Positions 65 to 18,226 of a stretch of 20,222 bases of DNA are shown piece by piece. The stretch is from Planctomycetota bacterium. Lineage in GTDB: Bacteria; Planctomycetota; GCA-002687715; DRQF01. The number at the start of each line of letters is the position of its first letter. The first letter of the stretch is position 1. Where the stretch lies: the NCBI GenBank assembly GCA_036479435.1, contig JAZGFI010000295.1, positions 1 to 20,222 of the forward strand, read 5' to 3'. Below the pieces are notes generated by a model. It searched no databases and had not been told where the DNA came from. It saw only the letters and a list, made by a program, of their open reading frames with translations. A program made the translations under genes and the position numbers.

Positions 65-1378
65 CTAGAGCGAGGCACTGATCTCAGCGAGGGCCCGCTC
101 GACCGCAGCTTGGTCCATGTCGAGGACCGGGCGCGTTCGCATGCTCAAGTTGCCAGAAGTGAGCATGAGGACTTTGCGTTCGTAAAGACGGGCGCTGAAG
201 GCGTCGCGATCTTTTTCGTTGTCAAAGTCGAAGGCGAGCATGACCCCGCGTCCGCGGACGTTTTTGATCTTAGCGGTTTCCGAGGCGATCTTTTCTAGAC
301 CTGCCTGAAAAATAGCACCGACTTTGTTGACGTTGTCGAGCAGGTTGTCCTCTTTGATGATGCGGATGCACTGCTCAGACCGCACCATGTCAACGAGGTT
401 GCCGCCCCAAGTTGAGTTGATGCGGCTCGAGACCTGAAACACCGATTCTACTTCGTCGAGTCGCTTGTTAGCGGCGATGCCGCAAACCTGCGCCTTTTTG
501 CCGAAGCAGAAGATGTCGGGCTCGACTCCCAACTGCTCAAAGGCCCACCAAGTTCCGGTAAGGCCCATGCCGCACTGGACTTCGTCGAAGATCAAAAGGA
601 TGTCTTCACGGTCGCAGATGTCCCGCAATTCGCGTAAGAACTCGGCGCGGAAGTGGTTATCGCCACCTTCGCCCTGGATGGTCTCGATGAGAATGCCGGC
701 GATCTTGTCGGGGCGTTCGGCGATCGCGGTCCGAATGGCCTCGAGGCTGACTTTCTCAGACGCTTCGATGCCGGCGACGTCTCCAACGCATGTCGGCGTA
801 GGCGCGCGGGGCCAGTCGAATTTCGGGAAGTACTGGTACTTGCGCGGGTCGTTGGTGTTCGTGACCGTCAGGGTGTAGCCGGTGCGGCCATGAAAGGCGT
901 TTTCGAAGTGGAGGATTTGTAGGTCCTCGGTATCGGTGCCGCCCTTTGCAACGTTCTTGCGGTACTTCCAATCAAAAGCGGCCTTCATCGCGTTTTCGAC
1001 CGCGAGGCCTCCGCCCTCAACGAAGAAAAGGTGATTGCGATGGCTAGCAGGAATGGTGACTTCGGCGAATGTTTCGACGAAGTCTGCCATGGCCTGAGTG
1101 TAGACGTCCGAGTTGGTCGGCTTGACCAGCGCGATCATGGCGAGCTTTTCAACGAAAGCCGGGTCGGTCATCTTGGGGTGATTGAACCCCAAGGGCTGGC
1201 TCGCGAAGAAGCTGAACAAGTCGAGGTAGGTCTCCCCGGTTCGCGAGTCATGAATGTTGACGCCTTGGCTCTTTTCGTAGTCAAAGACGAGCGAAAAACC
1301 GTCAGCCAGCATGTACTTGCCGAGTTTTTCGTGGACATCACCGGGGGCGGTGCGGAATGGGTTTTTGGTGGTTTGCAT
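65..1378 (-). CDS. lat: L-lysine 6-transaminase (class III PLP-dependent aminotransferase)
   Basis: Class III motifs FHGRTGY, IETIQGEGGD, IFDEVQCG and PLP lysine in FGKKAQ, plus the Lat-typical SSRINSTWGGNLVDMVR. Start placed at ATG 1378 (MQTTK), preceded by GAGG, rather than at the TTG at 1405. Confidence 0.9.
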   Translation of the reverse strand: MQTTKNPFRTAPGDVHEKLGKYMLADGFSLVFDYEKSQGVNIHDSRTGETYLDLFSFFASQPLGFNHPKMTDPAFVEKLAMIALVKPTNSDVYTQAMADFVETFAEVTIPASHRNHLFFVEGGGLAVENAMKAAFDWKYRKNVAKGGTDTEDLQILHFENAFHGRTGYTLTVTNTNDPRKYQYFPKFDWPRAPTPTCVGDVAGIEASEKVSLEAIRTAIAERPDKIAGILIETIQGEGGDNHFRAEFLRELRDICDREDILLIFDEVQCGMGLTGTWWAFEQLGVEPDIFCFGKKAQVCGIAANKRLDEVESVFQVSSRINSTWGGNLVDMVRSEQCIRIIKEDNLLDNVNKVGAIFQAGLEKIASETAKIKNVRGRGVMLAFDFDNEKDRDAFSARLYERKVLMLTSGNLSMRTRPVLDMDQAAVERALAEISASL

Positions 1379-1541
1379 GATTGACCTCGCAGTTGGGTTC
1401 TGCAATCGCCGGGTAGGTTCGAGCCTGAGCGCTTAGCTCAGGGGAATCGAATCGTGTGGCGGACGGGCCCGCTGCGGTGCGAATTGCGGCCGCGGCAGGC
1501 GGGGTCTGGGCCTCGCACGCGACGTCGAAGCAGCCAGCTGA

Positions 1542-1570
1542 AAGATAGCAATCTGTCCTAAGGCGAACAA
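1542..1570 (-). promoter_or_regulatory. Putative sigma70-type promoter for lat
   Basis: Minus strand reads TTGTTC-17 nt-TATCTT, with TG at the extended -10 position (TGcTATCTT). Confidence 0.4.
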
Positions 1571-1602
1571 GAACGGCTAATTAGGGGCGCTGCCACCATC
1601 GG

Positions 1603-1654
1603 CAAAGTCCGGGAACTCCTGGCGCCACCAAAGTCCGGGAACTCCTGGCGCCAC
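1603..1654. repeat. Exact 26-bp tandem duplication in the lat/serA intergenic region
   Basis: caaagtccgggaactcctggcgccac occurs at 1603-1628 and 1629-1654. The second copy runs into a 9-bp hairpin (aactcctgg 1640-1648 with ccaggagtt 1654-1662). Confidence 0.9.
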
Positions 1655-1883
1655 CAGGAGTTGGAAGCGCCCATAGTGACCTTATTCTCGTCAAGCCGTT
1701 CCGTTTCGTCCGACGCAATCTTTCGACAGCGGAGGTCCTGGTTATCCTGCGCACGAAGATTGGACCTCGATCGGGTCATTTTGCCGCGACGGCGCGCCTG
1801 CGGTTTGGTCGCATCACCCGATTGAGATGGAGTGGTTACGTCGTCGACGCCTGCGCGGAGACGGCCCAAATCGGGCAACAAAA

Positions 1884-3464
1884 GTGAAGATTCTTGTCGC
1901 TGACAAACTGGACATCAAACACTTCAAGGCCTTAGAAGGCAGCGGCGTGGAGCCGGTCGATCGCATCGGCATTACGCCTGAAGAGCTGCTGAATGAAATC
2001 GGCGACTATGATGCCTTGGTCGTTCGTTCGCGGACGAAAGTGACGCCCGAAGTTCTGGCCGCGGGCACCAAGCTCAAAGTCGTGGGCCGCGCCGGTTCCG
2101 GGATCGACAACATCAACCTTGAAGCTGCGACCGATCGCGGCATTTTGGTGATGAACACTCCTGGTGCCAACAGCAACTCCGCTGCCGAACATGCCATCGC
2201 GATGATGATGGCGATGTGCCGCAATGTTGCGGCCGCCGATGCTTCTTTGCGATCTGGAAAGTTCGAGAAGGCGAAGTTTACCGGTGTCGAAGTCAAAGGC
2301 CGTCGCCTCGCCGTGCTCGGCTTGGGTAAGATCGGTGGTCTTGTCGCCCAAAAGGCCATTGGCCTCGGGATGAAGGTCGCGGGATACGACCCGATGACCA
2401 CCGCGGCTGCGGCTTCGCAAATGGGCATTGAACTCGTCGAGCTCGAGGATGCGGTTGGCTTTGCCGACATCATCTCCTTGCATGTGCCCCTCACCAAACA
2501 AACCAAGCATCTCGTCAATGCCGAGCTGATGGAACGGATGAAGCCGGGAGTTCGCATTATCAACTGCGCGCGCGGCGGGATCATCGACGAAGATGCCCTG
2601 CATCAGGCTCTTGTCAAAGGACATGTGGCGGGCGCAGCGCTTGACGTCTTTGAAGTCGAGCCACCGGAAGGCTCGCCGCTTTTGGACTTGCCTCAAGTGG
2701 TGGTGACGCCTCACCTCGGTGCCTCCACCATCGAGGCTCAAGAAGCCGTAGCCCTCAGAGTCTTGGAACAGGTCCGCGATTTCCTCACCGGCAAAGCCAC
2801 AGTGGGTGCCATCAACGGTTTGGCCCTGGACGAAGGCACTCGCGACGACATCGCGCCCTTCTTGAAGCTCGCTGAACGCCTCGGCGTTATCTTGTCCGGC
2901 ATCCAACAGGGTCCCGGCAAGTTGACCGCCCGTTATTTTGGTCATATCCCCAGCAAAAACGTACGCGCCCTCACCTCGTATTCTTTGAAGGGCCTTCTGC
3001 GCCAATTTCTCGGCGACGAAGTCAACGAACTCAGCTCCTTCGAAAAAGCCCGCACCCGCGGCATCGAAGTCGAAGAGATCACGCGCGACGAGCACAAATC
3101 GTTCCAGGCTCTTATCGAGTTCAGCCTCGAAGCCGACGGGCGCAAGACCTCCGTCGCGGGCACCGTGTTCGGCAAAAACAACCTGCGCCTGGTCCGTATC
3201 GACAAGTTTAACCTCGACGCCATCCCCGAAGGCTATATGCTCTTTGTGTCCAACGACGATGTTCCCGGCGTCATTGGCCGCATCGGGACCGCTTTGGGTG
3301 ATACTAAGATCAACATCGCCAACTTGTCCTTGGGACGCGAAACGAGCGGCGGTCGTTCTTTGGCCGTCTTCAATCTCGACAGCGCCCCCAGTGCCGATAC
3401 GCTTAAGTCATTCGAAGAATTAGAAGGCGTGCACGTCGTGCGCCTCGTCAAAACCGAAGCCTAA
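1884..3464 (+). CDS. serA: D-3-phosphoglycerate dehydrogenase, long form with ASB and ACT domains
   Basis: VRSRTKVT, GRAGSGIDNI, NAD-binding GLGKIG, INCARGGIIDE and catalytic TPHLGAST; C-terminal ACT domain (NDDVPGVIGRIG...INIANLSL). Start at GTG 1884 gives the typical N-terminus MKILVAD. Confidence 0.95.
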   Translation: MKILVADKLDIKHFKALEGSGVEPVDRIGITPEELLNEIGDYDALVVRSRTKVTPEVLAAGTKLKVVGRAGSGIDNINLEAATDRGILVMNTPGANSNSAAEHAIAMMMAMCRNVAAADASLRSGKFEKAKFTGVEVKGRRLAVLGLGKIGGLVAQKAIGLGMKVAGYDPMTTAAAASQMGIELVELEDAVGFADIISLHVPLTKQTKHLVNAELMERMKPGVRIINCARGGIIDEDALHQALVKGHVAGAALDVFEVEPPEGSPLLDLPQVVVTPHLGASTIEAQEAVALRVLEQVRDFLTGKATVGAINGLALDEGTRDDIAPFLKLAERLGVILSGIQQGPGKLTARYFGHIPSKNVRALTSYSLKGLLRQFLGDEVNELSSFEKARTRGIEVEEITRDEHKSFQALIEFSLEADGRKTSVAGTVFGKNNLRLVRIDKFNLDAIPEGYMLFVSNDDVPGVIGRIGTALGDTKINIANLSLGRETSGGRSLAVFNLDSAPSADTLKSFEELEGVHVVRLVKTEA

Positions 3465-4799: not shown

Positions 4800-6281
4800 T
4801 CAAATCCGGTCGCCATATTCCTTTATTGAAATAGCGATGGATGTGTCGAGCCAGCGGTCGAATGAGTCCTCGACGTCTGCGACCTTTGTCTTCCACGTTA
4901 GGATAAAGGGCTCGACGGAACAGGGAACGAAGTCGCGTGAAGCCGATCGGGAATCTTCGTCTTCGTAGTATTCGATCTTTGAGAACGCAGTGGCCTCTAT
5001 GATACCGCAAAGTTCCCTGCCGACATGGTGGAAAGAGACGACGAAAACGAGCCTTTCAGACGCGAATTTGATGGTGCCTTTAACGAAGAGATGGTCTTCC
5101 GAAAAGTTAATGAACTTTCCGGATTTCTCCGCGGACTCGATGACATCTCGCCTGTACCAATGGGCGTTGTCTTTGTCTCGCCCACCGCTGCCGACCCACA
5201 CTTTTGGGCGGGGAGTTGCAGGCAGGGCGGCTGCGAGATTGTTCAGAGCTTGATGGACGGCCATTTGAGCGCGTTCTCGAAGTGTCCGTCCGATTACGTC
5301 GACTCGTCGCAGTTCCTCGTCTTTCTCTTCTTGCCTACGCCCAAACTTCGCTCTTAGATTCTCAATCACGGCAGCGGTTACTGTTTGATGCTGAGCCATA
5401 TCTGCATCTGTGTTGACGCTCAAGCCCTGCAAGATAGCGTCGCGTTCCAACTTTGCGAATAGCGAAACGAGCTCGGTAAGGTCGCCAGTATCGGCGCTCT
5501 CGAGCGCCTTGATGTACTCTGATCTCATGTCTCGGTCGATAACCAGGGGCAAGAGATTGGCCTTCAGTAGAACCAGAGTTGTCAACGCTCTGCCGACGCG
5601 ACCGTTTCCGTCTTGATAGGGATGAATCTGCGTGAAGCAGTGGTGCAGCCATGACGCGACAACTACCGGATCTTCCTTCGCGTAGCTCTCGTAGTAGGCG
5701 ATCAGCCGGTCGATTTCTGCGTCGACTTGGATGGGCGGGCAGTATTCGTGCTTTGTACCGTCTTTTGTTCTTGGGTTATTCGGGAGTTTTTTGAATTGGC
5801 CCTTGAGCAGTTTGATCTCTACTCGCTTGCCGGTGTTCTCCTCCTTGGCGATCGTTGTGTCTTGATTCCGCATCAATATCGCGTGTAGTTCGTGAATCAA
5901 ACCCTTTGAGAGCCTTCGATTGCCCGCAACGACGTCGAGAACAATCTGGATCGCAGCCTCCTGGTCCCGAAGGATGTCAATGAGGTGAGACGGTTCGATA
6001 TTTGTACTACTTCGTGCGACGAGGTCTTCAGCGAATCCACTGGCGACAAGCGCTTCTGTCGTCCCCCGATCCAACTCGTACGCATGCTCAAGGATGCCGG
6101 TTTCAATCGTGAGCCGCCTCACGAGGCGTTGCGTAAAATCTTCGAGCTGAGCTTTGCTTGACTTGGCGAGCCGCTCTTTCGCTGCCCACCAAGTTTCGTA
6201 AAGCGAGTGGATGGAAGCGAGGTCGATAGCCCGATCGGAGTCCGAAAGACCCCTGATTCGTTGCCATTTAAAATCAGCCAT
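4800..6281 (-). CDS. Fic-domain protein with an uncharacterised C-terminal extension
   Basis: Catalytic motif HPYQDGNGRVGR matches HPFxDGNGRxxR. N-terminal TGILEH resembles the (S/T)xxxE(G/N) inhibitory helix. GGAG RBS upstream of the ATG. Confidence 0.9.
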   Translation of the reverse strand: MADFKWQRIRGLSDSDRAIDLASIHSLYETWWAAKERLAKSSKAQLEDFTQRLVRRLTIETGILEHAYELDRGTTEALVASGFAEDLVARSSTNIEPSHLIDILRDQEAAIQIVLDVVAGNRRLSKGLIHELHAILMRNQDTTIAKEENTGKRVEIKLLKGQFKKLPNNPRTKDGTKHEYCPPIQVDAEIDRLIAYYESYAKEDPVVVASWLHHCFTQIHPYQDGNGRVGRALTTLVLLKANLLPLVIDRDMRSEYIKALESADTGDLTELVSLFAKLERDAILQGLSVNTDADMAQHQTVTAAVIENLRAKFGRRQEEKDEELRRVDVIGRTLRERAQMAVHQALNNLAAALPATPRPKVWVGSGGRDKDNAHWYRRDVIESAEKSGKFINFSEDHLFVKGTIKFASERLVFVVSFHHVGRELCGIIEATAFSKIEYYEDEDSRSASRDFVPCSVEPFILTWKTKVADVEDSFDRWLDTSIAISIKEYGDRI

Positions 6282-6576: not shown

Positions 6577-7911
6577 CTACCGTGGTTGTACCGCCGCGGT
6601 TTCCTTGGCTATCCGGCGATAAAGCCAAACACCCGCAGTTCGAGATCCCGTCGGTTGGAAGGTGCGGCGTTCCGCCCACACCTTGCCCCATGCCTCACGG
6701 TTTTCGCGGTAGGGTTTTAGCGCCCTCAGGATCTCAAAGGCCTTTCGGCCTTCTTCTTTGCTCATGTCGGAGGTGTCGGCGGCATGTTTGGAGAGGATGA
6801 CGTTCATTTCTTTGCTGAGCGAACTGGTCTTGGCGACCAGCTCCTTGAGGCGGGCCTTTTCTTTGACGTCTAGGATGCGTTTCTTCGGAGCGACGGAGCA
6901 GTAGCCGCCGACGAGAAGGTCAAGGTCGCCGTCGCCGTCGTAATCCACGGGGTCGGCGTAACAACCGCTATTGGGAAAGCGCAGGTCCGAGGGCTGGCAG
7001 ACGCCCGGAGAAATCAGGGCCACGGGCTTGGCAAACTTCGGCGCCTTTTTCTCACCGACATTGCGATAAAAGTAGACGCCACCTTTGAAGCTGCCACAGA
7101 CCAAGTCCTTAAGGCCGTCCGCATCCCAGTCGACTAAGCGAGGGGCGGTCAAGCCGCCCGGGACATTGAAGTCTTCGCCACCCGCGCGCAGCAGCTGGTT
7201 CGTCGTGTCAAATTTGGGCGACCCCGGCTTACCGTGATTCATGCGCAGGTAAAGCCGGCCTTCTTTGGCCCCCAACAGAATGTCGAAGTCGCCGTCCGCA
7301 TCCCAATCCCAAACCATCGCTGAAACACAGTGGTCTTTGGGATTTGATTGGCCCTCGGGGCTGCGCTTAGCATTTTTGTAGGTGTCCTCTTCCATGTCGT
7401 AGTAAAGCGACAAGACGAGGTATTCGCCAGCGGCATCGATCAAGTGCTCCGGTTTTCCCCAGCCCTTATGGCTTCCTCGCGAGATGAACACCGTGCCTTC
7501 ATAGGTCGCGGTAATGATGTCGGTATGACCGTCTGCGTCGAAGTCCACAAACTGTGGACACATCCCGATGCATCACCAGTTGTTGAACTTGAGTTTTTCG
7601 CCTTCGGCCTGAAGGAGCACCTGTTTTTGCCACTTGAGGCCATCTGCACTCGCCGTGCAGGCTCGCACCGTGCCGAAGATCTCCCCGAGCACCAACTCGC
7701 GTTTCCCGTCCCCGTCAAGGTCGTGCAAAACGGGCGAGGGATACATGAGATTGCTGATGGCCTTGCCGCCAGCCGTCAGTTCCACCGGCGCTGCGAAACT
7801 CTGCCCCTGAAGGGCTCGGTCATTCTGCTTCGTGGCATCGCCTTGAGCCGATTGAGCACTCAGCGAAGCGGTCAAAGAAAAAAGTAAAACCAGGGTCGTC
7901 GAAACTCTCAT
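6577..7911 (-). CDS. Secreted FG-GAP/VCBS-repeat beta-propeller protein, probable selenoprotein (444 aa, in-frame TGA at codon 113)
   Basis: ORFs 7573..7911 and 6577..7563 are in the same frame, joined by TGG TGA TGC ATC GGG ATG. Signal peptide MRVSTTLVLLFSLTASLSA, GAGAGG RBS, five DxDxDG repeats, and a SECIS-like hairpin directly after the TGA. Confidence 0.75.
7534..7572 (-). promoter_or_regulatory. Putative bacterial SECIS element
   Basis: After the UGA the mRNA reads UGC A UCGGG AUGU GUCCACA GUU UGUGGAC UUCGA C GCA. The upper stem is a perfect 7 bp starting 13 nt after the UGA, the apical loop begins GU, and a lower stem forms from UGC/GCA and UCGGG/UUCGA. Confidence 0.65.
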
Positions 7912-8548: not shown

Positions 8549-10801
8549 TTACATTCCCAGCTCTTCCAACATCCAATCACGCGGCGGGGAGATGTGTTTG
8601 CCCCCAGGCGCAGGGTTTGACGACATCGACAAAATCAGTTGCCGCACTTTCTTTTTTCCCTTCGCTGTCTCCGATGCCTGTCGCGGTGTCTTTCCCGACA
8701 AAGCGGGCAGCGGGATGTCGATCCAGTTGCGGTAGTGTTCATCGATCGCCTGCTGCAAGATCTGGTTAACGACTTCGTCCGAAAGACCCTCATCAAGAGA
8801 TGGTAGGGCATCATCAAGCGGGACTTCATCCATGTCGATGGTCTTTGAATGCAAAAACCTCACTCCCGGCAAGCCGTCTAAGCAGTCTCGAATGGTGGCG
8901 CTGCGCTCAAGGGAATTGACTTCCACCAACCATTGGTCGCCGATGAACTCGATCTTGGCACCCGTTACCTTGCCATCGGGCCCCATGCTCTTCGCCTTGA
9001 GCAACCAATGTGCCATCTGATTGTCGTGGTCGTAGTCAATGTCGGCTCGCGCCGTCAAGGCTGCCGTGGCTGCCTTCGAATCCGTGACTTCATAGACCAA
9101 GCGGGTGGGGCAAAGGGGCTCGCCATGGAAGTTTTGAAGCTTCGGTGGGTGTGTCGCTTGGTAGCTCCGCTCCTCCTCAAGCCAATCCCAAGTTCTTCCC
9201 AGGCGCTCGGGGGCACTCGCCAAAACTTCTTCAAGGTCCTCATCTGAGAGTGTGAGACGATGCACGATGCTGTCGAGCATCATACCTCGGGTTGGAGGGC
9301 TCGCTACACAGATGAAGAAGTAGGGACCTGCCGAATAAATGCGGGCCGCAAATTGCATGTCGATTTCTGCCGCTAAAGAAAAGCTGCGGTCGTGCACGAG
9401 GTGGCGCTGGCCGTTGATGGTGTCGATCAATGTGATGGACTCGCCGGTTTCGACTTCCTCCACGCGATAAAAAGAATGGCCTGCCGTGCTGCGCGCTCGC
9501 AAGATGTCCATGGTGAACTTTGGAAAGGAGTCAGCTTTGCTCAGGACGACTTCGGCGATCGTCTTGGACTTCTTGGTTGGCCGAAATTGCATGAAGAGCC
9601 ATTCCCAAAACGCGATCAGTTCGAGGCTGATTTCGGTTGCATCTGCAATGCGCCCGCTGTTTCCAAAGTACTTACGTTCCGGTTTCTCAGTACTGCGTCG
9701 TGAGCGCCTTAGCTGTTCGAAGAGAAACTCGGTCACCATATTGTCGCGATCTCGCCACAGGTCGTAGTCGCTCAATCGCGGTTCCTTCGTCTCCATCTCT
9801 TCTGCAGTCGCCTCTGAGAGGCGAGCGATGGCTTCGATGACGACTTCGGTCAACGATTCCAACTTGGGGTCTGAAGGCGAAAACTCGGACTCGACTCCTC
9901 GTTCTTTGAGAACAGGGGCCATCAACGCAAAGGCCCTTTGGCTGGTAAACAAGATGCTTTTCGGCAAGCCTCGCCATCCGACGTCGTTCTCGCCATTCAT
10001 CACCGCAATGACGAAGTTGGCGATCTCCGCCGGTGCGTTGGGAGCAACTAGCCCCGTTTTTTTGGCCTCTTCACCGAAACGATCGGCGACCATGACACAG
10101 TAGCGGTGAGAGTCATCGTCTCCGATCGGGATCGGAATAGGGAGAGTGCCAGCGACCCACTGACCATCTTGCAGCGAAAGATCGTCCTCAATTTCATCAA
10201 GCTCCGTCTCAGGCTGGTCGCCATCAGAGGCCTCAGCCTGGGATACCACCCTGATCGACGGTTTTACGATCGGTTCGAAGGCGTTGCCCTCGAGTTTGAA
10301 ACTCAGGATGCGTCCGTCTCGAATATCAAAGGGCTTGAGCTGGCCTTTGTCGTCCGCCTCAAGTAGGCCGTTGATCGCAAATAACAAGGCCCGTTGATCA
10401 GCTCTTTTGGGGCCTCGTGACCATTTACCAGGCAGTTTAGAGACGAACCAAGGGGCTAAGGTTTCTCGCCGCCCCTTGAACCTAGCCTGATCCAAAATCG
10501 GCCGGCACTCTTTTGGAATCTCCGACAGCGCGCAAACCGAAAACCCTATCTGGTCGATCTCGTCGATGACGTCTTCGCCATCAATGAGGCGTATGAATAG
10601 CGAGGCGGCGTTGGGACCTCTGAAGAAAGTGAGACCGTACTCTTCGGCCCCTTGCCCCATGATCGATCCAATCATGAGATCCGAACCGTCTGGCAGCATC
10701 ACGCCCAGCATCTCTTCCGGTTCGATCCGCAGCCAAAGCCGCCGTCGATAAAACTCCATCGCTCGTTCAACCAGTGCTTCGCAAAGACGATCCCGTTTCA
10801 A
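8549..10801 (-). CDS. Uncharacterised 750-aa multidomain protein, paralogue 1; C-terminus resembles the Xre/MbcA/ParS toxin-binding (DUF2384-like) domain
   Basis: Long ORF with TTG start and AGGAG RBS; C-terminal HYRNWIDIPLPALSGKTPRQA...GKKKVRQLI; collinear over its full length with 11057..13318. Confidence 0.8.
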   Translation of the reverse strand: MKRDRLCEALVERAMEFYRRRLWLRIEPEEMLGVMLPDGSDLMIGSIMGQGAEEYGLTFFRGPNAASLFIRLIDGEDVIDEIDQIGFSVCALSEIPKECRPILDQARFKGRRETLAPWFVSKLPGKWSRGPKRADQRALLFAINGLLEADDKGQLKPFDIRDGRILSFKLEGNAFEPIVKPSIRVVSQAEASDGDQPETELDEIEDDLSLQDGQWVAGTLPIPIPIGDDDSHRYCVMVADRFGEEAKKTGLVAPNAPAEIANFVIAVMNGENDVGWRGLPKSILFTSQRAFALMAPVLKERGVESEFSPSDPKLESLTEVVIEAIARLSEATAEEMETKEPRLSDYDLWRDRDNMVTEFLFEQLRRSRRSTEKPERKYFGNSGRIADATEISLELIAFWEWLFMQFRPTKKSKTIAEVVLSKADSFPKFTMDILRARSTAGHSFYRVEEVETGESITLIDTINGQRHLVHDRSFSLAAEIDMQFAARIYSAGPYFFICVASPPTRGMMLDSIVHRLTLSDEDLEEVLASAPERLGRTWDWLEEERSYQATHPPKLQNFHGEPLCPTRLVYEVTDSKAATAALTARADIDYDHDNQMAHWLLKAKSMGPDGKVTGAKIEFIGDQWLVEVNSLERSATIRDCLDGLPGVRFLHSKTIDMDEVPLDDALPSLDEGLSDEVVNQILQQAIDEHYRNWIDIPLPALSGKTPRQASETAKGKKKVRQLILSMSSNPAPGGKHISPPRDWMLEELGM

Positions 10802-11056: not shown

Positions 11057-13318
11057 TTAGATCCCCAGCTCTTCGAGCATCCATTCACGCGGCGGGGAGA
11101 TCTTTTGGCCTCCCGGCGCGGGCAGTGAGGATATGGACAAGATGAGCTGCCGAACTTTTCGTTGCCCATGCTGTGTACTCGCCGCTTGCCGTGGGGTCTT
11201 CCCCGCCAAGCCGGGCAGGGGGCAATCGATCCAACTGCGATAGTGCTCGTCCATGATCTTCTGCAAGAGTTCGGTAACTTCTGGGCCCTGAAGGTTCTCA
11301 CCAACAAATGGCAGGGAATCATCGAGGGGGCGTTCGTCCAAGTCTATGTTTATGTCAATGGTTTTGGAGTTTAGAAAGCTCAGGCCCGGCAGGTCGTCCA
11401 GCCATTCTCGGACGGCTAAGCCGCGCTCTATGGATGTGATTTTGACCAGCAACTCGTCGCCGATGAATTGGAGACTTGTGCCCAAGGCGTGGGCAATGGG
11501 GCCCCCATTCTCGGCGTCTCCTAAAAAAAGTGCCGTTTGACGTTCGGGATCGAACTCGATGTCAGGCCGTTCCGTCAAGGCCTCAATGGCCGTCTTGGCA
11601 TCCCTGACTTCGTAACTCAACAGAGTCGGGCAATAGGGCTCGCCATGAGAGTTAAGCATCGCGGGCGGGTGTGAAGCTTCATCAGCATGATCTTCGATGA
11701 GCCAATCGATGACTCTTCCGAGGCGCTCGGGAGTTTCCCTAAGCACATCCTCCAAGATTATGTTTGAAGGCACCAGGCGATCCACGATCTTGTGATGCTG
11801 CACGACGTCGACCGGGGGGCTCGCCAACCACAAAAATGTGTAAGGCCCCACGGAATAGACGCGTGCGGCGAACAGCATGTCGATATCCACTGTCAAGGAG
11901 AGGTTTCGATCGTGGACGACATGGTGTTTGCCATCAATCGTGTCGATCAAAGTGATGGTCTCACCAACTTCGACTTCGTCCACGCGATAAAACGAAAGGT
12001 CGGCGTCGATGCGTGCCTGCAAGATGTCCATCGTGAATTCAGATTCGAAGTTCGCCCGGTTCAAGGTGAGTTCTGCGATCGTTTTTGACTTTGCGTCGGG
12101 CCGATAGCTGAAAAAGACCCACTCCAAAAAAGCAGTCTCAGCGAGACTATGTTCCTCCCCGTCGGTTACCTGTCCCTTGGAACCGAAGTACTTTTTCTCC
12201 GCCTTCTTAAGGTCTCTCCGCGAGCGTTTCATCTGGTCGTAAAGAGCATCGCTAACGTCACGATCGCGATCACGCCACAACTCGCATTCGCTCAGTTCAG
12301 GCTCGGAGTCTTGGCTCTCAACTTCTGCGGTCAGGTCGATCTCTTCCAAGATGCTCTTGGACATCTTCTCCAACTTGGGGTCCGAGGGTGAAAACCTCGA
12401 CTTCACGCCCCGTTTCGTCAACAGAGACTCCAAAAGCGCAAAGGTCTTTTGGTTTGTGAACACAACGCTCTGCGGGAGACCTCGCCAGTTCCCCAGGTTT
12501 TCACCATTCATGGTCGCAATAACCAAGTTGGCGAATTTCACCGGGGCGTTACCGGGGATGAAGTCCACGTTGATGGCTTGGGCGCCCGAGCGATCGATGA
12601 TGACGGCTCCGTAGCAGGAAGTCCCATCTTTTCCGGCCGATAGGGGAGTGGGAAGCAAACCAACGACCCAGTCGCCGTCTCGGCGCGGCAGATCCGCCGC
12701 CAAACAATCAAGCTGTGCTTCAAAGTCGCTTAAACAAAAGGCCTCAACCTTCGGCAGCTTTCGAACCGCGGGCTTGAGGATCGGTTCCAACATGCTGCCT
12801 TCGAGTTCAAAACTCAGGATGCGCCCGTCTCGAACGCTGAAGGGCCGAAGCTGCCCCTTATCATCCGCTTCAAGAACCGCATTGAGGGCAAACAACAGCG
12901 TTTGTTGCTCGCTTTTTTTAAGGTCCCGCGGCCACTTACCCGGCTTTTTCACCATGAACCAGGGAGCTAGCGTCTCGCGCCTTCCCTTGAAACGGGCTCG
13001 GTCCAAAGTCTCTCGAAACTCCATCGGGATCTCGTTCAAGGCCCAAATCGAAAACACCAACTCATCGACCTCTTCGACGACATCCTCGCCATCGGTGACC
13101 TTCAGCATCAGCGATGCGGCGTCCTTGCCGCGATAAAAGGCCAAGCCATACTCATCGCTCTCGCTTCCCATGATCGAAGCGATCATCAACTCCGAGTCAG
13201 GTTTCCCCGGCAACAAGATGCCCACCGCCTCCTCCGCGCGAATGCGCAGCCAAAGCCGCCGCCGATAAAACTCCATCGCTCGCTCAAACAGCATTTCGCA
13301 AAGACGATCCCGTTTCAA
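11057..13318 (-). CDS. Uncharacterised 753-aa multidomain protein, paralogue 2
   Basis: TTG start with AGGAG RBS. Shares MKRDRLCE, ARFKGRRETLAPWF, WRGLP, SFYRV, PLPxLxGKTPRQA and SPPRxWMLEELG with paralogue 1. Confidence 0.8.
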   Translation of the reverse strand: MKRDRLCEMLFERAMEFYRRRLWLRIRAEEAVGILLPGKPDSELMIASIMGSESDEYGLAFYRGKDAASLMLKVTDGEDVVEEVDELVFSIWALNEIPMEFRETLDRARFKGRRETLAPWFMVKKPGKWPRDLKKSEQQTLLFALNAVLEADDKGQLRPFSVRDGRILSFELEGSMLEPILKPAVRKLPKVEAFCLSDFEAQLDCLAADLPRRDGDWVVGLLPTPLSAGKDGTSCYGAVIIDRSGAQAINVDFIPGNAPVKFANLVIATMNGENLGNWRGLPQSVVFTNQKTFALLESLLTKRGVKSRFSPSDPKLEKMSKSILEEIDLTAEVESQDSEPELSECELWRDRDRDVSDALYDQMKRSRRDLKKAEKKYFGSKGQVTDGEEHSLAETAFLEWVFFSYRPDAKSKTIAELTLNRANFESEFTMDILQARIDADLSFYRVDEVEVGETITLIDTIDGKHHVVHDRNLSLTVDIDMLFAARVYSVGPYTFLWLASPPVDVVQHHKIVDRLVPSNIILEDVLRETPERLGRVIDWLIEDHADEASHPPAMLNSHGEPYCPTLLSYEVRDAKTAIEALTERPDIEFDPERQTALFLGDAENGGPIAHALGTSLQFIGDELLVKITSIERGLAVREWLDDLPGLSFLNSKTIDINIDLDERPLDDSLPFVGENLQGPEVTELLQKIMDEHYRSWIDCPLPGLAGKTPRQAASTQHGQRKVRQLILSISSLPAPGGQKISPPREWMLEELGI

Positions 13319-13695: not shown

Positions 13696-14823
13696 GGCGA
13701 TCGTCTTCGACTTCTTAGGGGGGTGCCGAAAGAAAAAGAACCATCTCCAAGGGTGCGATCACTTCGAAAGTTGTTCCTCGGCCGCCACTTAATCGTCCAA
13801 GCCTAGGTTTTCGGCTTCGGCGTTTTTTTCAGCATCACTTGAGCCCCTTGCAAGTACTTTGGCGATGGTCTCGGCCATGAAATCCAGTTTCGGATTGGTG
13901 GCCGCGTATTCGGAATCGACGTCTCGCTCGGCCAAGATGGCCTCCATGAGTTTCCATGCTCTGAGGCTTGTGAACAAAACGCTCTGCGGCAGACCCCGCC
14001 AGCCTTCGGCGTTGTTGCCATTCATGGTGGCGATGACGAAGTTGGCGATCTCAACCGGTGCATTGGCGGGGATAAGATTTGTATTGACGGCTCTCTTTTC
14101 ATGTCGAGCCGCTACCACGACGCAATAGCGCTCGCTCCCTTCTCCGCCGACGGGGAAGGGCATCGATAGTAACCCAACCACCCAATGACCATCTTGCAGC
14201 GGAAGGTCCTCATCCAACTAATAAAGTTCGGACGGGTCATCCTCGAACTCAAGGTCCTCAGCTTTCAGTACGCTCCGGATCGATGGCTTTACGATCGGTT
14301 CAAACGCGCTCCCTTCGAGTTCAAAACTCAAGATACGCCCGTCTCGAATATCGACCGGATTGAGCTGATCTTTGTCGTCCGCCAAAAGGATGCCATTGAG
14401 GGCAAACAAGAGCGCTCGTTGTTCCTTTCGGTTGGGTCCGCGTGACCGAATGCCGGGCTTTTTAGAGATAAACCAAGGCGCCAATGTTTCGCGCCGACCC
14501 TTGAAACGGGCTTGGTCCAAGACATGCCGATACTCTGGCGGTATCCTCGACAAGGGGCCAACAGAAAACCCCAATTGATCGACGACATCCTCCGTCTGGT
14601 CGCCATCGATGGCTCTAAAGATGATTGAGGCGGCGTTGACTCCCCTAAAAAAGGACAGTCCATGTTCGCGGCCTTGTCCCATGACCGAACCAATCATGAG
14701 CTCTGGACTATCCGGGGACACGATGCCGATGTTGTCTTCCGCGGCAATCCGAAGCCAAAACCGACGCCGATGAAACTCGAGGGCCCGGTCAACCAGTGCT
14801 TCGCATAGACGATTCCGTTTCAA
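13696..14823 (-). pseudogene. Decayed third paralogue of the ~750-aa family
   Basis: 14218..14823 and 13789..14217 are one frame split by TAG (ELY*LDEDL versus ELDEIEDDL in paralogue 1), ending at a TAA at 13789. Frameshifted homologous remnants continue beyond it (EVIAPLE/WFFFFRHPPKKSKTIA versus ELIAFWEWLFMQFRPTKKSKTIA) to about 13696. The C-terminal ~45% is missing. Confidence 0.85.
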
Positions 14824-15136: not shown

Positions 15137-18100
15137 ATGTCCCTCACCCAAAAGTACCGCCGCCATTTCAGCGTCTTAGACCAAAGGGAAGGCGAAGACT
15201 ACTTCCGTCAGGGCCGCGTTGAGTCCGTTCAGCGTGACAACGGAAACATCTGGGCGCAGGTTCGAGGCAAAAAGGAGAGCTACTCCGTTTTTTGGGAACA
15301 GCAGGGAGACTACTTTTGCACTTGCCGTACCTACTACCGCCTTCGCATTTGTAAGCACCTTTGGGCCTTACTGTGCCAAGCAGATGCCGACGACAAGTCT
15401 GGTCCAGATGCGAATTCGTCTTGGCGTTTTGCCTTGAAGCGACTCGGGTGGTCGGAAGAGACCGAATCAGAAGCCGATAGCGCAGAACACGCTATTTCCT
15501 ACGCATTGTCTTGGCCCGCGAACGCCCTGGAGGGCAATGTGTATCTTCAGGTCTTGACCAGAAAACGGCTGAAGAGCGGGCGCTGGGGCGCAACGAAGTT
15601 CGTACAAGCGGAGCGCCTGGAGTCCCTTGCCGAAGAAGACCTTGAGATCGTCTCCTGGCTCCAAGGAGCGCGGCGGCGCGAAGCATCAGACTTCATGGAC
15701 TACGGCCGCCATTACGACCGCTACTCCCCGGGCCTTGACCTCGTGCTGCCGGATCACGCCTTGGCCGCTTTACTTCCTGTGCTTTGCAAAACCGGGCGTT
15801 TCCATATCGGATCCAAAGAATTTATGGAAGACGAGGTCCTCAAGCTGGACGAGGATGGTGTTTGGATCGCGGAGCCAAAGTTGGAGGGGGAAAAGCGCCT
15901 GGTCTTGGACGTCGATTTCGTACGTGGCGACTCCATCATCAAGAGTTCCGAAATACTGGAAGTCTTAGCCGGAGGGTGGATTCTGACCGATCGCACCTTT
16001 CGCCGTTTCGGCCCCGAACAAGCGATGGATTGGCTTGCGTGGCTCGAGGAGCATCCGGTCATCATCGACAAAAAAGATGTCGATGAGTTTTTTGCTGCGG
16101 CCCAAGATTCCACGCTCGGCGCCGCACTTCAACCGCCAGAGGGATGGGAAACAGCAACTGTCGCGGCGAAGGACATCCAACCGGTCTTGGTGCTTTCGGC
16201 GGGTCGCGTCGGCCGGGTGATCGCTCGACTTGACTTTGACTACGGTGACCTGCGAGTTGCTGCAGATCAAGCGTCACAGTGGGCGGACCCCAAAGAGCGG
16301 CTCGTTTTTTCACGACAAGAAGACACAGAGGCACCCTTTAGAAGTCAGCTTCTCAAGGTGTTGAGTCCCGAGCCCAAGGCTCAACTTCCCTTTGAACTAT
16401 CGACCTCAGAAGTCTCATCGCTCGTCACCACGATGCGGGCAGAAGGCTGGGCTACCGAGGCGAACGGAAAACCGATTCGGACCTCAACGGGTAGCTCGGC
16501 TACAGTCCGTTCGACGATTGATTGGTTTGACCTCAAGGGCGGTATTCAGTTCGGCGACGAGTTCGTCAGTTTTCCTCGAATCCTCACAACCTTGCGGCGC
16601 GGCGAAAGCCAGATCGTCTTGGATGATGGCAGTCGCGGCATTTTGCCCGAAGAATGGATGCGCCGGCGGGGGCTTTTGGAATCTGCTGAAGTCGAAGGCG
16701 ACTCACTCCGGTTTCGCCAAAGCCAATGCTTGCTCTTGGACATGCTGCTTGAGTCCGAGCCTCAGCCCGATATCGACGCGCAGTTTCGGCGCATTCGAAA
16801 GGCCCTCAAGAATTTCAAGAGTCCCCAGCCGGTCACTGAGCCCCGTGGCTTCCAGGGCGAATTGCGCGCTTATCAGCGCGAAGGATTGGGCTGGATTAAG
16901 TTCTTGGAGAAGTTCGGGTTTGGCGGTTGTCTCGCGGACGACATGGGCCTCGGCAAGACCGTGCAGGTTTTGGCCTATCTCCAATCCAAAAAAGCTAAGC
17001 GAGGACCCAAGGCTGCGACCTTGGTGGTCGCGCCGCGATCAGTGGTTCCGAACTGGATCAACGAGGCCAACAAATTTGCGCCGAACCTTAAGGTCTTGGA
17101 CTACAGCGGCAGTGACCGCAAGAATCTCGTTGCTGAGTTTTCAAACCACGACCTGGTCATCACGACCTATGGTTTGATGCGCCGGGATATCGAAGTACTT
17201 AGAGAACAGGAATTCGGCTGCCTCATCCTCGACGAATCCCAGGCGATCAAAAACGCCAAATCTCAAACCGCCAAGGCCGCGCGCTTGCTTCGCGGCCGCC
17301 AAAAGCTTGCACTAAGCGGCACGCCGATCGAAAACCACATCGACGAGCTTTGGTCCTTGTTTGAGTTTCTCAACCCGGGAATGTTCGGGGCCACCAAGGT
17401 CTTGCAAGAGCTTGCCCAACAAGGCGAGGATGGTCGCCGTCAGTTAGCTGAAGCCTTGACGCCGTTCATCCTCAGGCGCAAAAAAGACGAAGTCGCCAAA
17501 GACCTCCCAACACGCAGCGAGCAGACTTTGATTTGCGTCCTGCCAAAGGACCAACGCAAGGTCTACGACGGTCTTTTGCAACACTACCGAGCGAGCTTGA
17601 GCAAAAAGATCGAAGCTGAGGGCTTGGGGCGTTCCAAGATGCATGTGTTGGAGGCCCTGACGCGTCTTCGACAAGCCGCCTGTCATCCCGCTTTGATTGA
17701 CGCCACTTCGAATGTGGCCTCAGCCAAAGTAGATCTGTTGATGGAACGTCTTGAAGAAGTCGTGGGCGAAGGCCACAAGGCCTTGGTCTTTTCGCAGTTC
17801 ACCAAGTTCTTGGCCATCGTGCGTAAGCGCTTAGACCAAGCCAATATCACTCACGAGTACCTCGACGGCAAAACTCGAAAGCGCGAACAAAAAGTCGAAC
17901 GTTTCCAAACCGACCCCGACTGCCCGCTATTTCTCATTTCTCTAAAAGCTGGCGGCACGGGCCTCAACCTCACGGCTGCGGACTATGTCTTCTTGTTGGA
18001 TCCTTGGTGGAACCCCGCCGTCGAGGCCCAAGCCATCGATCGCGCCCACCGCATCGGCCAAACTCGAAACGTCTTCGCCTATCGCCTCATCGCCAAGGAC

Positions 18101-18226
18101 ACGATCGAAGAGAAGATCCTCGCCCTTCAAGGCCAAAAACGAGACCTCGCCGAGTCCATCCTCAGCGGCGGCTCCAAGACCTTACGCGACCTGACTCGCG
18201 AGGATTTGGAGATGCTCTTAGCTTGA
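15137..18226 (+). CDS. SNF2/SWI2-family helicase/ATPase with an N-terminal SWIM zinc finger
   Basis: SWIM motif CTC-x8-CKH; helicase motifs LRAYQREG, LADDMGLGKT, ILDESQ, LSGTPIEN, LVFSQF, SLKAGGTGLNL, DPWWNP and QAIDRAHRIGQ. Confidence 0.95.
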   Translation: MSLTQKYRRHFSVLDQREGEDYFRQGRVESVQRDNGNIWAQVRGKKESYSVFWEQQGDYFCTCRTYYRLRICKHLWALLCQADADDKSGPDANSSWRFALKRLGWSEETESEADSAEHAISYALSWPANALEGNVYLQVLTRKRLKSGRWGATKFVQAERLESLAEEDLEIVSWLQGARRREASDFMDYGRHYDRYSPGLDLVLPDHALAALLPVLCKTGRFHIGSKEFMEDEVLKLDEDGVWIAEPKLEGEKRLVLDVDFVRGDSIIKSSEILEVLAGGWILTDRTFRRFGPEQAMDWLAWLEEHPVIIDKKDVDEFFAAAQDSTLGAALQPPEGWETATVAAKDIQPVLVLSAGRVGRVIARLDFDYGDLRVAADQASQWADPKERLVFSRQEDTEAPFRSQLLKVLSPEPKAQLPFELSTSEVSSLVTTMRAEGWATEANGKPIRTSTGSSATVRSTIDWFDLKGGIQFGDEFVSFPRILTTLRRGESQIVLDDGSRGILPEEWMRRRGLLESAEVEGDSLRFRQSQCLLLDMLLESEPQPDIDAQFRRIRKALKNFKSPQPVTEPRGFQGELRAYQREGLGWIKFLEKFGFGGCLADDMGLGKTVQVLAYLQSKKAKRGPKAATLVVAPRSVVPNWINEANKFAPNLKVLDYSGSDRKNLVAEFSNHDLVITTYGLMRRDIEVLREQEFGCLILDESQAIKNAKSQTAKAARLLRGRQKLALSGTPIENHIDELWSLFEFLNPGMFGATKVLQELAQQGEDGRRQLAEALTPFILRRKKDEVAKDLPTRSEQTLICVLPKDQRKVYDGLLQHYRASLSKKIEAEGLGRSKMHVLEALTRLRQAACHPALIDATSNVASAKVDLLMERLEEVVGEGHKALVFSQFTKFLAIVRKRLDQANITHEYLDGKTRKREQKVERFQTDPDCPLFLISLKAGGTGLNLTAADYVFLLDPWWNPAVEAQAIDRAHRIGQTRNVFAYRLIAKDTIEEKILALQGQKRDLAESILSGGSKTLRDLTREDLEMLLA

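Follow-up and report, generated by a model that had tools for sequence, protein, structure and literature searches.

Introduction

The fdhF gene of Escherichia coli is the paradigm of selenoprotein genes that depend on SelB and on a bacterial selenocysteine insertion sequence (bSECIS). In mammalian thioredoxin reductase, a C-terminal Gly-Cys-Sec-Gly with adjacent Cys and selenocysteine (Sec) makes up the redox centre of a flavoprotein, and the N-terminal domain of DsbD has as its clients DsbC, DsbG, and CcmG, which are thioredoxin folds with a CxxC motif. The topology of FG-GAP propellers has been established for the propellers of integrins. Here, we compare with these systems a gene of a Planctomycetota bacterium, located at positions 7911-6577 on the minus strand of a stretch of 20,222 nucleotides (contig JAZGFI010000295.1, assembly GCA_036479435.1), which is called the window in the following. 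An earlier note, made from the letters of the window, had proposed this gene as a hidden selenoprotein, i.e., a secreted FG-GAP propeller in which an in-frame TGA encodes Sec next to Cys. Our analysis supports this proposal, and no refutation test that was run went against recoding. Judged from sequence comparison, the UGA at 7575-7573 is very likely recoded as Sec, and a single gene for a Sec-containing, exported propeller is, with hardly less confidence, the best explanation of 7911-6577 as a whole.

Like the bacterial SelB/bSECIS-dependent genes, the locus has an in-frame UGA directly followed by a stem-loop within the coding region, whose small apical loop contains G-U at a distance of 16-37 nt, a genome that encodes selA, selB, selD, and tRNA-Sec, and rare Cys orthologues. 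Unlike the catalogued families of this type, its protein family is unlisted, and Cys forms occur very rarely, at 2 of 65 loci. The catalogue in question is that of a 2026 review, which comprises 119 prokaryotic selenoprotein families and subfamilies (PMC13188914, Table 1). None of its entries is an FG-GAP, VCBS, or propeller family, and the sole UC motif listed is that of the CopZ-type GxUC family; FG-GAP proteins thus stand outside the catalogued selenoprotein families, as the earlier note had stated for the classic ones. No selenoprotein model of NCBIfam matches the protein, with just FusH appearing below threshold (23.6 bits versus a cut-off of 999). In the literature searched, no paper was found that connects FG-GAP, VCBS, or propeller proteins of bacteria with selenocysteine or selenoproteins. 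FG-GAP, VCBS, and propellers are mentioned neither in PMC13188914 nor in a 2022 selenoprotein review, the Global Ocean Sampling (GOS) paper, or the accessible portions of the deep-Sep paper. FG-GAP and VCBS are likewise absent from the main text of PMC4807772, which deals with selenoprotein candidates of two planctomycetes, and the main text of the BSepDB paper, as distinct from the BSepDB family table, contains neither FG-GAP, VCBS, or propeller nor "Planctomyc". As far as the accessible portions of the deep-Sep paper describe it, the filter of that method needs a Sec homologue that is already known or, among the top matches, homologues with Cys; with Cys forms at so few loci, the family would tend to fail this filter, which may explain why it was missed. 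Fold, location, and motif are all unusual in this new selenoprotein family.

With the thioredoxin reductase centre the protein shares adjacent Cys and Sec residues, which are able to form an electron-shuttling, eight-membered selenenylsulfide ring. Here, however, the order is Sec-Cys, the pair is internal (W-U-C-I-G, residues 112-116) and lies in a rigid propeller loop instead of a flexible tail, the fold is unrelated, the protein is exported, and Pfam shows no flavoprotein domain. A vicinal Sec/Cys dipeptide is also found in the catalogued CU/UC families, namely GxUC (2Fe-2S)/CopZ-type, MerB-like SaoL, HgcA, SaoC, and MbdU (PMC13188914), but those proteins are cytoplasmic or tied to organometal chemistry, have unrelated folds, and none of them is a propeller. 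Like the clients of DsbD, the protein is exported and would carry a redox centre of two chalcogens, and relatives of it are fused to the DsbD N-terminal domain (DsbD_N); unlike DsbC, DsbG, and CcmG, it is a propeller with an adjacent U-C.

Results

A single frame with one TGA codon

Positions 7911-6577 of the minus strand form a single frame of 444 codons, and the reading-frame check of the window finds the TGA at 7575-7573 as its sole interruption. Open reading frame (ORF) A (7911-7576, 112 aa, with a hydrophobic N-terminus) precedes this codon. It is followed by TGC (7572-7570), ATC, GGG, and ATG (7563-7561), and ORF B, which is in frame with ORF A and comprises 328 aa, ends at the TAG at 6579-6577. 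Read through, the gene (6577-7911, minus strand) translates into 444 residues including Sec113, with U113-C114 embedded in W-U-C-I-G-M (residues 112-117), a few residues ahead of the inner strand of the second repeat. Similarity searches with tblastn give one segment across the TGA in 30 out of 30 loci, and one confident domain of the AlphaFold2 (AF2) model covers both halves. The layout claimed in the earlier note, two ORFs of one frame parted by TGA-TGC-ATC-GGG, is hence the one we observe, on the minus strand, which had been left unstated, and its alignment of the repeat spanning the TGA with intact repeats holds on re-check.

The segment 7400-7750 of the window is identical in contigs of four runs from three studies, two of them possible sources of this DNA. 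The TGA is thus carried by independent assemblies and is not an artefact of one of them. No RNA data set is among the listed carriers of this stretch.

Conservation of the TGA codon

Homologous loci were collected in two sets. For the first one, 401 Planctomycetota genomes were searched with stops read through, which gave 66 rows representing 65 loci, all of which were fetched. The second set stems from a scan of species-representative genomes with 394 confirmed loci, of which 80 were kept. At least six of these 80 coincide in contig range with loci of the first set, i.e., the sets overlap in part and were not de-duplicated. A family match was obtained in 59 of the 401 sampled genomes of the phylum.

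In the first set, the codon aligned to residue 113 (7573-7575, minus strand) is TGA in 63 out of 65 loci. The two exceptions, L070 in genome G344 and L071 in genome G375, carry TGC and TGT, respectively, and both read Cys-Cys. Cys follows directly after codon 113 in all 65 loci, in good agreement with the invariant column of Cys114 (7570-7572, minus strand), the vicinal partner of Sec113, in an alignment of 63 sequences. All 80 loci of the second set show the TGA and the W-U-C motif. The TGA-bearing homologues share 30-55% protein identity and have intact frames, and neither TAA nor TAG nor codons for Trp, Arg, or Gly occur at position 113 among the homologous loci of both sets. The expectation that homologues would have TGA or Cys at this position, with similarity on both sides, is therefore borne out, and to the extent that aligned codons can tell, conservation of the TGA is far beyond chance. 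TGA is also the terminal stop in 8 of the first 30 homologous genes, which argues that it still acts as a stop and has not been reassigned.

A search of 5.8 billion proteins demonstrates how the family appears in public databases. Among the 120 best matches, 111 start at most six residues before Q-F-V-D, just past the TGA, and 8 further ones start slightly more downstream. The annotation as two genes that the earlier note had foreseen thus applies to 119 of 120 homologues. Only P0003 (440 aa) is of full length among these 120, and it reads W-C-C-T-G-M. A word-index search with residues 36-135 returned two matches, a truncated relative and P0122, a generic multi-repeat FG-GAP protein without Cys-Cys at the site, and says little on the number of Cys forms.

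Named records are nearly all metagenome-assembled genomes (MAGs) of Planctomycetota, with Saltatorellus ferox Poly30 (locus L153), which has the TGA form, as one cultured strain. Two loci were deposited under other groups, L097 in a Paracoccaceae MAG and L116 in an uncultured Chitinophaga MAG, which could be due to mis-binning or to real spread outside the Planctomycetota. Locus L064 (G321:C64) gives two adjoining matches in a frame of 368 aa that lacks roughly the segment between blades 2 and 3 (E-Y-E-G-R-L-Y junction); an internal deletion or a fault of the assembly may have caused this gap.

A bSECIS-type hairpin downstream of the UGA

The published bSECIS model requires an apical loop of 3-9 nt, an upper stem of 4-16 bp, a spacing of 16-37 nt, and a minimum free energy of at most -7.5 kcal/mol, with G within the first two loop positions, mostly as N1-G-[G/U]-N-N2 (PMC13188914). 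The SECIS expected 3' adjacent to the UGA is present in the window as a stem-loop at 7538-7568 (minus strand), with an upper stem 7559-7553/7549-7543, an apical loop G-U-U at 7552-7550, and a lower stem of 5 bp, 7568-7564/7542-7538. Its 7-bp upper stem starts 13 nt past the UGA, the G-U-U loop (or A-G-U-U-Y) starts 20 nt past it, and the fold has -11.2 kcal/mol, so that all four published constraints are satisfied.

Covariation was measured on the 63 aligned TGA loci, with 500 shuffles and slid controls. In the upper helix, 93.7% of cells are paired. Pair 21-29 is found as AU in 48 sequences, as GC in 12, and as GU in 2, with 1 sequence unpaired, while pair 20-30 is CG in 58, UA in 4, and UG in 1. 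The covariation score of 0.207 is reached by none of the 500 shuffles, and the slid controls range from 0.03 to 0.10. Since pair 21-29 joins the synonymous third base of a Pro codon with the second base of a Val/Ala codon, protein constraint alone does not account for the coupling, which points to selection at the RNA level. All six stem pairs are formed at 67 of the 80 loci of the second set, and the loop A-G-U-U-N is present in all 80. The Cys-form loci have only four of six upper-stem pairs each when their sequences are read, a weak indication at n = 2.

Selenocysteine machinery

The source genome is a draft of 299 contigs with 92% completeness. All four genes named in the earlier note were found in it above the curated cut-offs: selB (323 bits), selA (526 bits), selD (372 bits), and tRNA-Sec (67 bits), the latter also being reported by ARAGORN as tRNA-SeC with the anticodon TCA. 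The SelD frame itself has one in-frame TGA, with Sec in G-G-U-A-A-K, which is the catalogued UxxK site. The genes selA, selD, and tRNA-Sec (L009, L010, L012) adjoin each other on the minus strand of contig C117 of this genome (33648-36236), and selB is located on contig C237.

Within the phylum, selA is present in 290 of the 401 sampled genomes and in 56 of the 57 genomes that carry the TGA form. No selA match was obtained in G344, which has the Cys form only (99% complete, 1 contig). As related genomes are not independent, no statistic is attached to these counts.

A predicted five-bladed propeller

Pfam assigns the protein to the FG-GAP/VCBS propellers (PF01839, PF13517), with repeat profiles above their cut-offs (FG-GAP_3, 76.3 bits with a cut-off of 26.9; FG-GAP, 33.6 bits with a cut-off of 22.1) and with the D-x-D-x-D-G calcium-loop motifs of that family. 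Among proteins of solved structure, CRTAC1, ITFG2, and integrin alpha-IIb come closest in sequence, and this likeness is confined to the repeats. In the papers and the catalogue searched, the FG-GAP/VCBS repeat family has no counterpart to the Sec-Cys pair of the window protein.

The AF2 model built from the 63-sequence alignment has a predicted local distance difference test score (pLDDT) of 91.5 and a predicted template modelling score of 0.87, with high confidence on either side of residue 113. In an exhaustive structural comparison five-bladed propellers rank first (best Z 16-18, 246-271 aligned residues, root-mean-square deviation 3.5-4.0), in line with the sequence, which has five D-x-D-x-D-G motifs. 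Foldseek against the PDB gives just low TM scores of 0.30-0.37, to seven-bladed FG-GAP/integrin-type propellers. The five-bladed matches are GH62, GH43, and GH32 hydrolases. The likeness to them concerns the overall fold only (Z 14-18) and implies no membership, since sequence identity is 7-14%, the blades consist of FG-GAP repeats, and Pfam gives no GH match. The FG-GAP propeller of the earlier note thus stands and gains a propeller fold from the model. What has to be refined is the number of blades: with five repeats and five-bladed matches, the protein is predicted to be a five-bladed FG-GAP-type propeller, not an integrin-type one with seven blades.

The gene begins with a probable Sec-type signal peptide (7843-7911, minus strand as for all parts of the gene; residues 1 to approximately 20-23, M-R-V-S-T-T-L-V-L-L-F-S-L-T-A-S-L-S-A-Q-S-A-Q), recognized by sequence inspection and modelled with a pLDDT of 48-54 at residues 1-30. 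By inspection, most of the 65 homologues have a short, hydrophobic, signal-peptide-like N-terminus as well; two or three lack a hydrophobic start at the start codon chosen by our script, which is possibly the wrong one. Calcium-site-like D-x-D-x-D-G loops follow in blade 1 (D64-G69, 7705-7722; D64 invariant, D68 and G69 at least 90% conserved) and in blade 2 (D123-G128, 7528-7545), where the best FG-GAP stretch of Pfam spans residues 122-141. The loops of blade 3 (D202-D208, 7288-7308) and blade 5 (D323-D329, 6925-6945) were located by sequence and alignment, and that of blade 4 (D261-G266, 7114-7131) is covered by FG-GAP_3 (residues 261-334). A strand near the C-terminus (residues 423-431, 6619-6645, G-V-W-L-Y-R-R), with strand pLDDT above 90 and W429 at least 90% conserved, probably completes the last blade of the modelled propeller.

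Between blade 5 and this strand, DSSP analysis of the model places a helical insertion of three helices (residues 349-418, 6658-6867). A short subfamily of approximately 354-390 aa (L029, L032, L041, L042, L051, L053, L054, L056, L059, L061-L063, L065, L066) lacks these 70 residues, and its chain ends soon after blade 5. It keeps TGA, Cys, and hairpin, which suggests that the insertion is dispensable for the role of the Sec-Cys site.

Function of the Sec-Cys pair

The invariant columns of the 63-sequence alignment are Sec113, Cys114, and aspartates of the calcium loops, glycines, and prolines. No other conserved Cys or His and no acidic catalytic candidate was found in it, and according to this alignment Sec113 and Cys114 are the only invariant residues that are chemically reactive. 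By the topology of FG-GAP propellers, the loop that enters the innermost strand of blade 2 would carry the pair at its end, close to the funnel and on the face opposite the calcium loops.

The one hint to the biochemistry comes from fusions with DsbD_N (PF11412, cut-off 25 bits). The domain is fused C-terminally to the propeller in P0096 (35.3 bits) and L077 (G053:C125; 46.8 bits), whereas in L148 it is found N-terminally, between signal peptide and propeller (35.1 bits). The fusions thus occur in both orders and in different subfamilies, and each fused domain carries a C-x4-C pair before P-P-Q (Y-Q-A-C-x4-C-x-P-P-Q). When the DsbD_N part of P0096 was used as query, the matches were P0096 itself and one unfused protein only. 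The window protein itself is not fused to DsbD_N. The only DsbD_N match of its own genome lies in a protein of 886 aa that combines DsbD_N and DsbD_TM domains (L165, G000:C271:81000-84400, ORF 512-3172, minus strand), and this DsbD-like protein is a candidate electron donor for the propeller.

Genes around the locus

The neighbours in the window are unrelated to the selenoprotein gene and comprise a Fic protein, a membrane protein, and DUF7309 proteins. Directly downstream, at 4800-6281 on the minus strand, lies a Fic/DOC-domain protein of 493 aa (65.9 bits), a neighbour shared with one other of 30 loci (L031). Three paralogous DUF7309 proteins are arranged in tandem on the minus strand at 8549-10801, 11057-13318, and 14218-14823 (750, 753, and 201 aa). 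The tandem is adjoined by an SNF2-family helicase of 1029 aa at 15137-18226 on the plus strand, and this stretch may be a mobile or defence-type region.

Discussion

From the sequences compared, we conclude that the locus is a real, conserved selenoprotein gene, which uses the ordinary bacterial recoding mechanism and is mis-split by annotation. SelB and Sec-tRNA(UCA), directed by the stem-loop 13 nt past the codon, would read the UGA at 7575-7573 as Sec, and the N-terminal signal peptide would export the product of 444 residues. This product would adopt a propeller fold of the FG-GAP type with five blades, and would contain five calcium-loop motifs, a helical insertion, and a C-terminal strand that closes the propeller. 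The Sec-Cys pair may alternate between a selenol/thiol state and a vicinal selenenylsulfide as it reduces a substrate outside the cytoplasm, and may be re-reduced through a DsbD-type pathway.

Gene callers suggest instead that there are two genes, a secreted peptide of 112 aa that stops at the UGA and a cytoplasmic protein of 328 aa that restarts at ATG 7563, and nearly all database homologues do start past the TGA. The fourth codon past the TGA is ATG in 43 of the 63 TGA loci and GTG in one, as such a restart would need, but it is a non-start codon in the other 19, in which TGA and hairpin nevertheless persist. A restart at Met117 is therefore not conserved, which speaks against the two separately translated proteins that the earlier note had considered as a refutation. 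Moreover, the downstream part lacks a signal peptide and would start inside a blade, AF2 builds one closed propeller from both halves, and full-length Cys forms exist. We regard two genes as very improbable. Read-through of the UGA without Sec, be it by near-cognate insertion of Trp or Cys or by a reassigned code, would likewise keep the frame open and gains some room from the comparative nature of the evidence for Sec. It is still less probable: 8 of the first 30 homologous genes terminate with TGA, covariation supports a SECIS-type hairpin at a suitable distance, and selA accompanies the TGA form in 56 of 57 genomes and has no match in the complete Cys-form genome G344. An in-frame stop within a draft of 299 contigs might finally suggest a pseudogene or an error of sequencing or assembly. 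With identical sequence in contigs from three studies, and with the TGA kept at 63 of the 65 loci of the first set and at all 80 of the second, which have diverged to 30-55% protein identity in intact frames, this is hardly conceivable and already contradicted by conservation.

For the function of the recoded pair, we have moderate confidence in an exported reductase whose Sec-Cys selenenylsulfide serves as redox centre and is re-reduced via a DsbD-type pathway. The DsbD part of this proposal follows from the fusion of relatives to DsbD_N and from the DsbD-like protein encoded in the genome itself. The main functional rival accepts the same recoding and takes Sec-Cys as a site for a soft metal or metalloid (e.g., Hg, Cu(I), Cd, As), which would make the protein an exported chelator, sensor, or chaperone. 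Such a site would be in line with the catalogued proteins with adjacent CU/UC, which mostly are metal or organometal proteins (MerB-like SaoL, HgcA, SaoC, MbdU, GxUC (2Fe-2S)/CopZ-type; PMC13188914), and with the 63-sequence alignment, in which no further Cys or His is conserved by which a redox intermediate could be resolved. On the other hand, three relatives are fused, in both orders, to a DsbD_N with its own C-x4-C, the pattern expected of an electron-transfer partner, and no metal-resistance or transport genes recur beside the gene in 30 loci. We consider the metal site unlikely. Of the two options named in the earlier note, a selenenyl-sulfide or a metal-binding loop, the domain fusions thus favour the redox part over the metal part.

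Several observations weigh against our interpretation of gene and function and are collected here. Selenium incorporation and the full-length product rest on comparative evidence, and with Met117 encoded by ATG in the majority of the TGA loci, some re-initiation is possible. Taken alone, the hairpin is not significantly more stable than shuffled sequences (z -1.2 and -1.5, single sequence), its consensus lower helix is paired in just 74.9% of the 63 sequences, and related sequences without structure can exceed a shuffle control. As the hairpin coincides with the codons of the conserved peptide P-Q-F-V-D, its conservation is in part due to protein constraint. Genome G063 carries the TGA form and has no selA match at E <= 1e-40 (90% complete, 410 contigs), and G375 carries the Cys form and does have selA. 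With regard to function, the DsbD_N fusions are rare (2 of 145 loci and 1 of 120 database proteins), 30 loci show no conserved neighbours within 1.5 kb (the largest shared neighbour cluster comprises 3 of them), and the placement of Sec at the funnel is derived from topology, not from model coordinates.

The family is widespread: 59 of the 401 Planctomycetota genomes sampled have a match, and the scan of species-representative genomes confirmed 394 loci. Public annotation almost always splits it, and fixing the gene model would repair hundreds of truncated database entries. As an exported family without thioredoxin fold that uses Sec almost exclusively, it exemplifies families which may escape methods that require Cys homologues among the top matches. 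The DsbD_N fusions provide a concrete, testable idea of its biochemistry, and Saltatorellus ferox Poly30, as a cultured carrier, makes the prediction directly testable.

Tentatively, we propose that the family may be a new class of extracytoplasmic selenoenzyme, in which a five-bladed calcium propeller presents a vicinal Sec-Cys as catalytic selenenylsulfide at the mouth of its funnel, is recharged by a DsbD-type pathway, and needs selenium almost obligatorily, given Cys in 2 of 65 loci. If this is true, many Planctomycetota would spend selenium on an unknown extracytoplasmic reduction, carried out on a fold that has never before been tied to redox catalysis by Sec.

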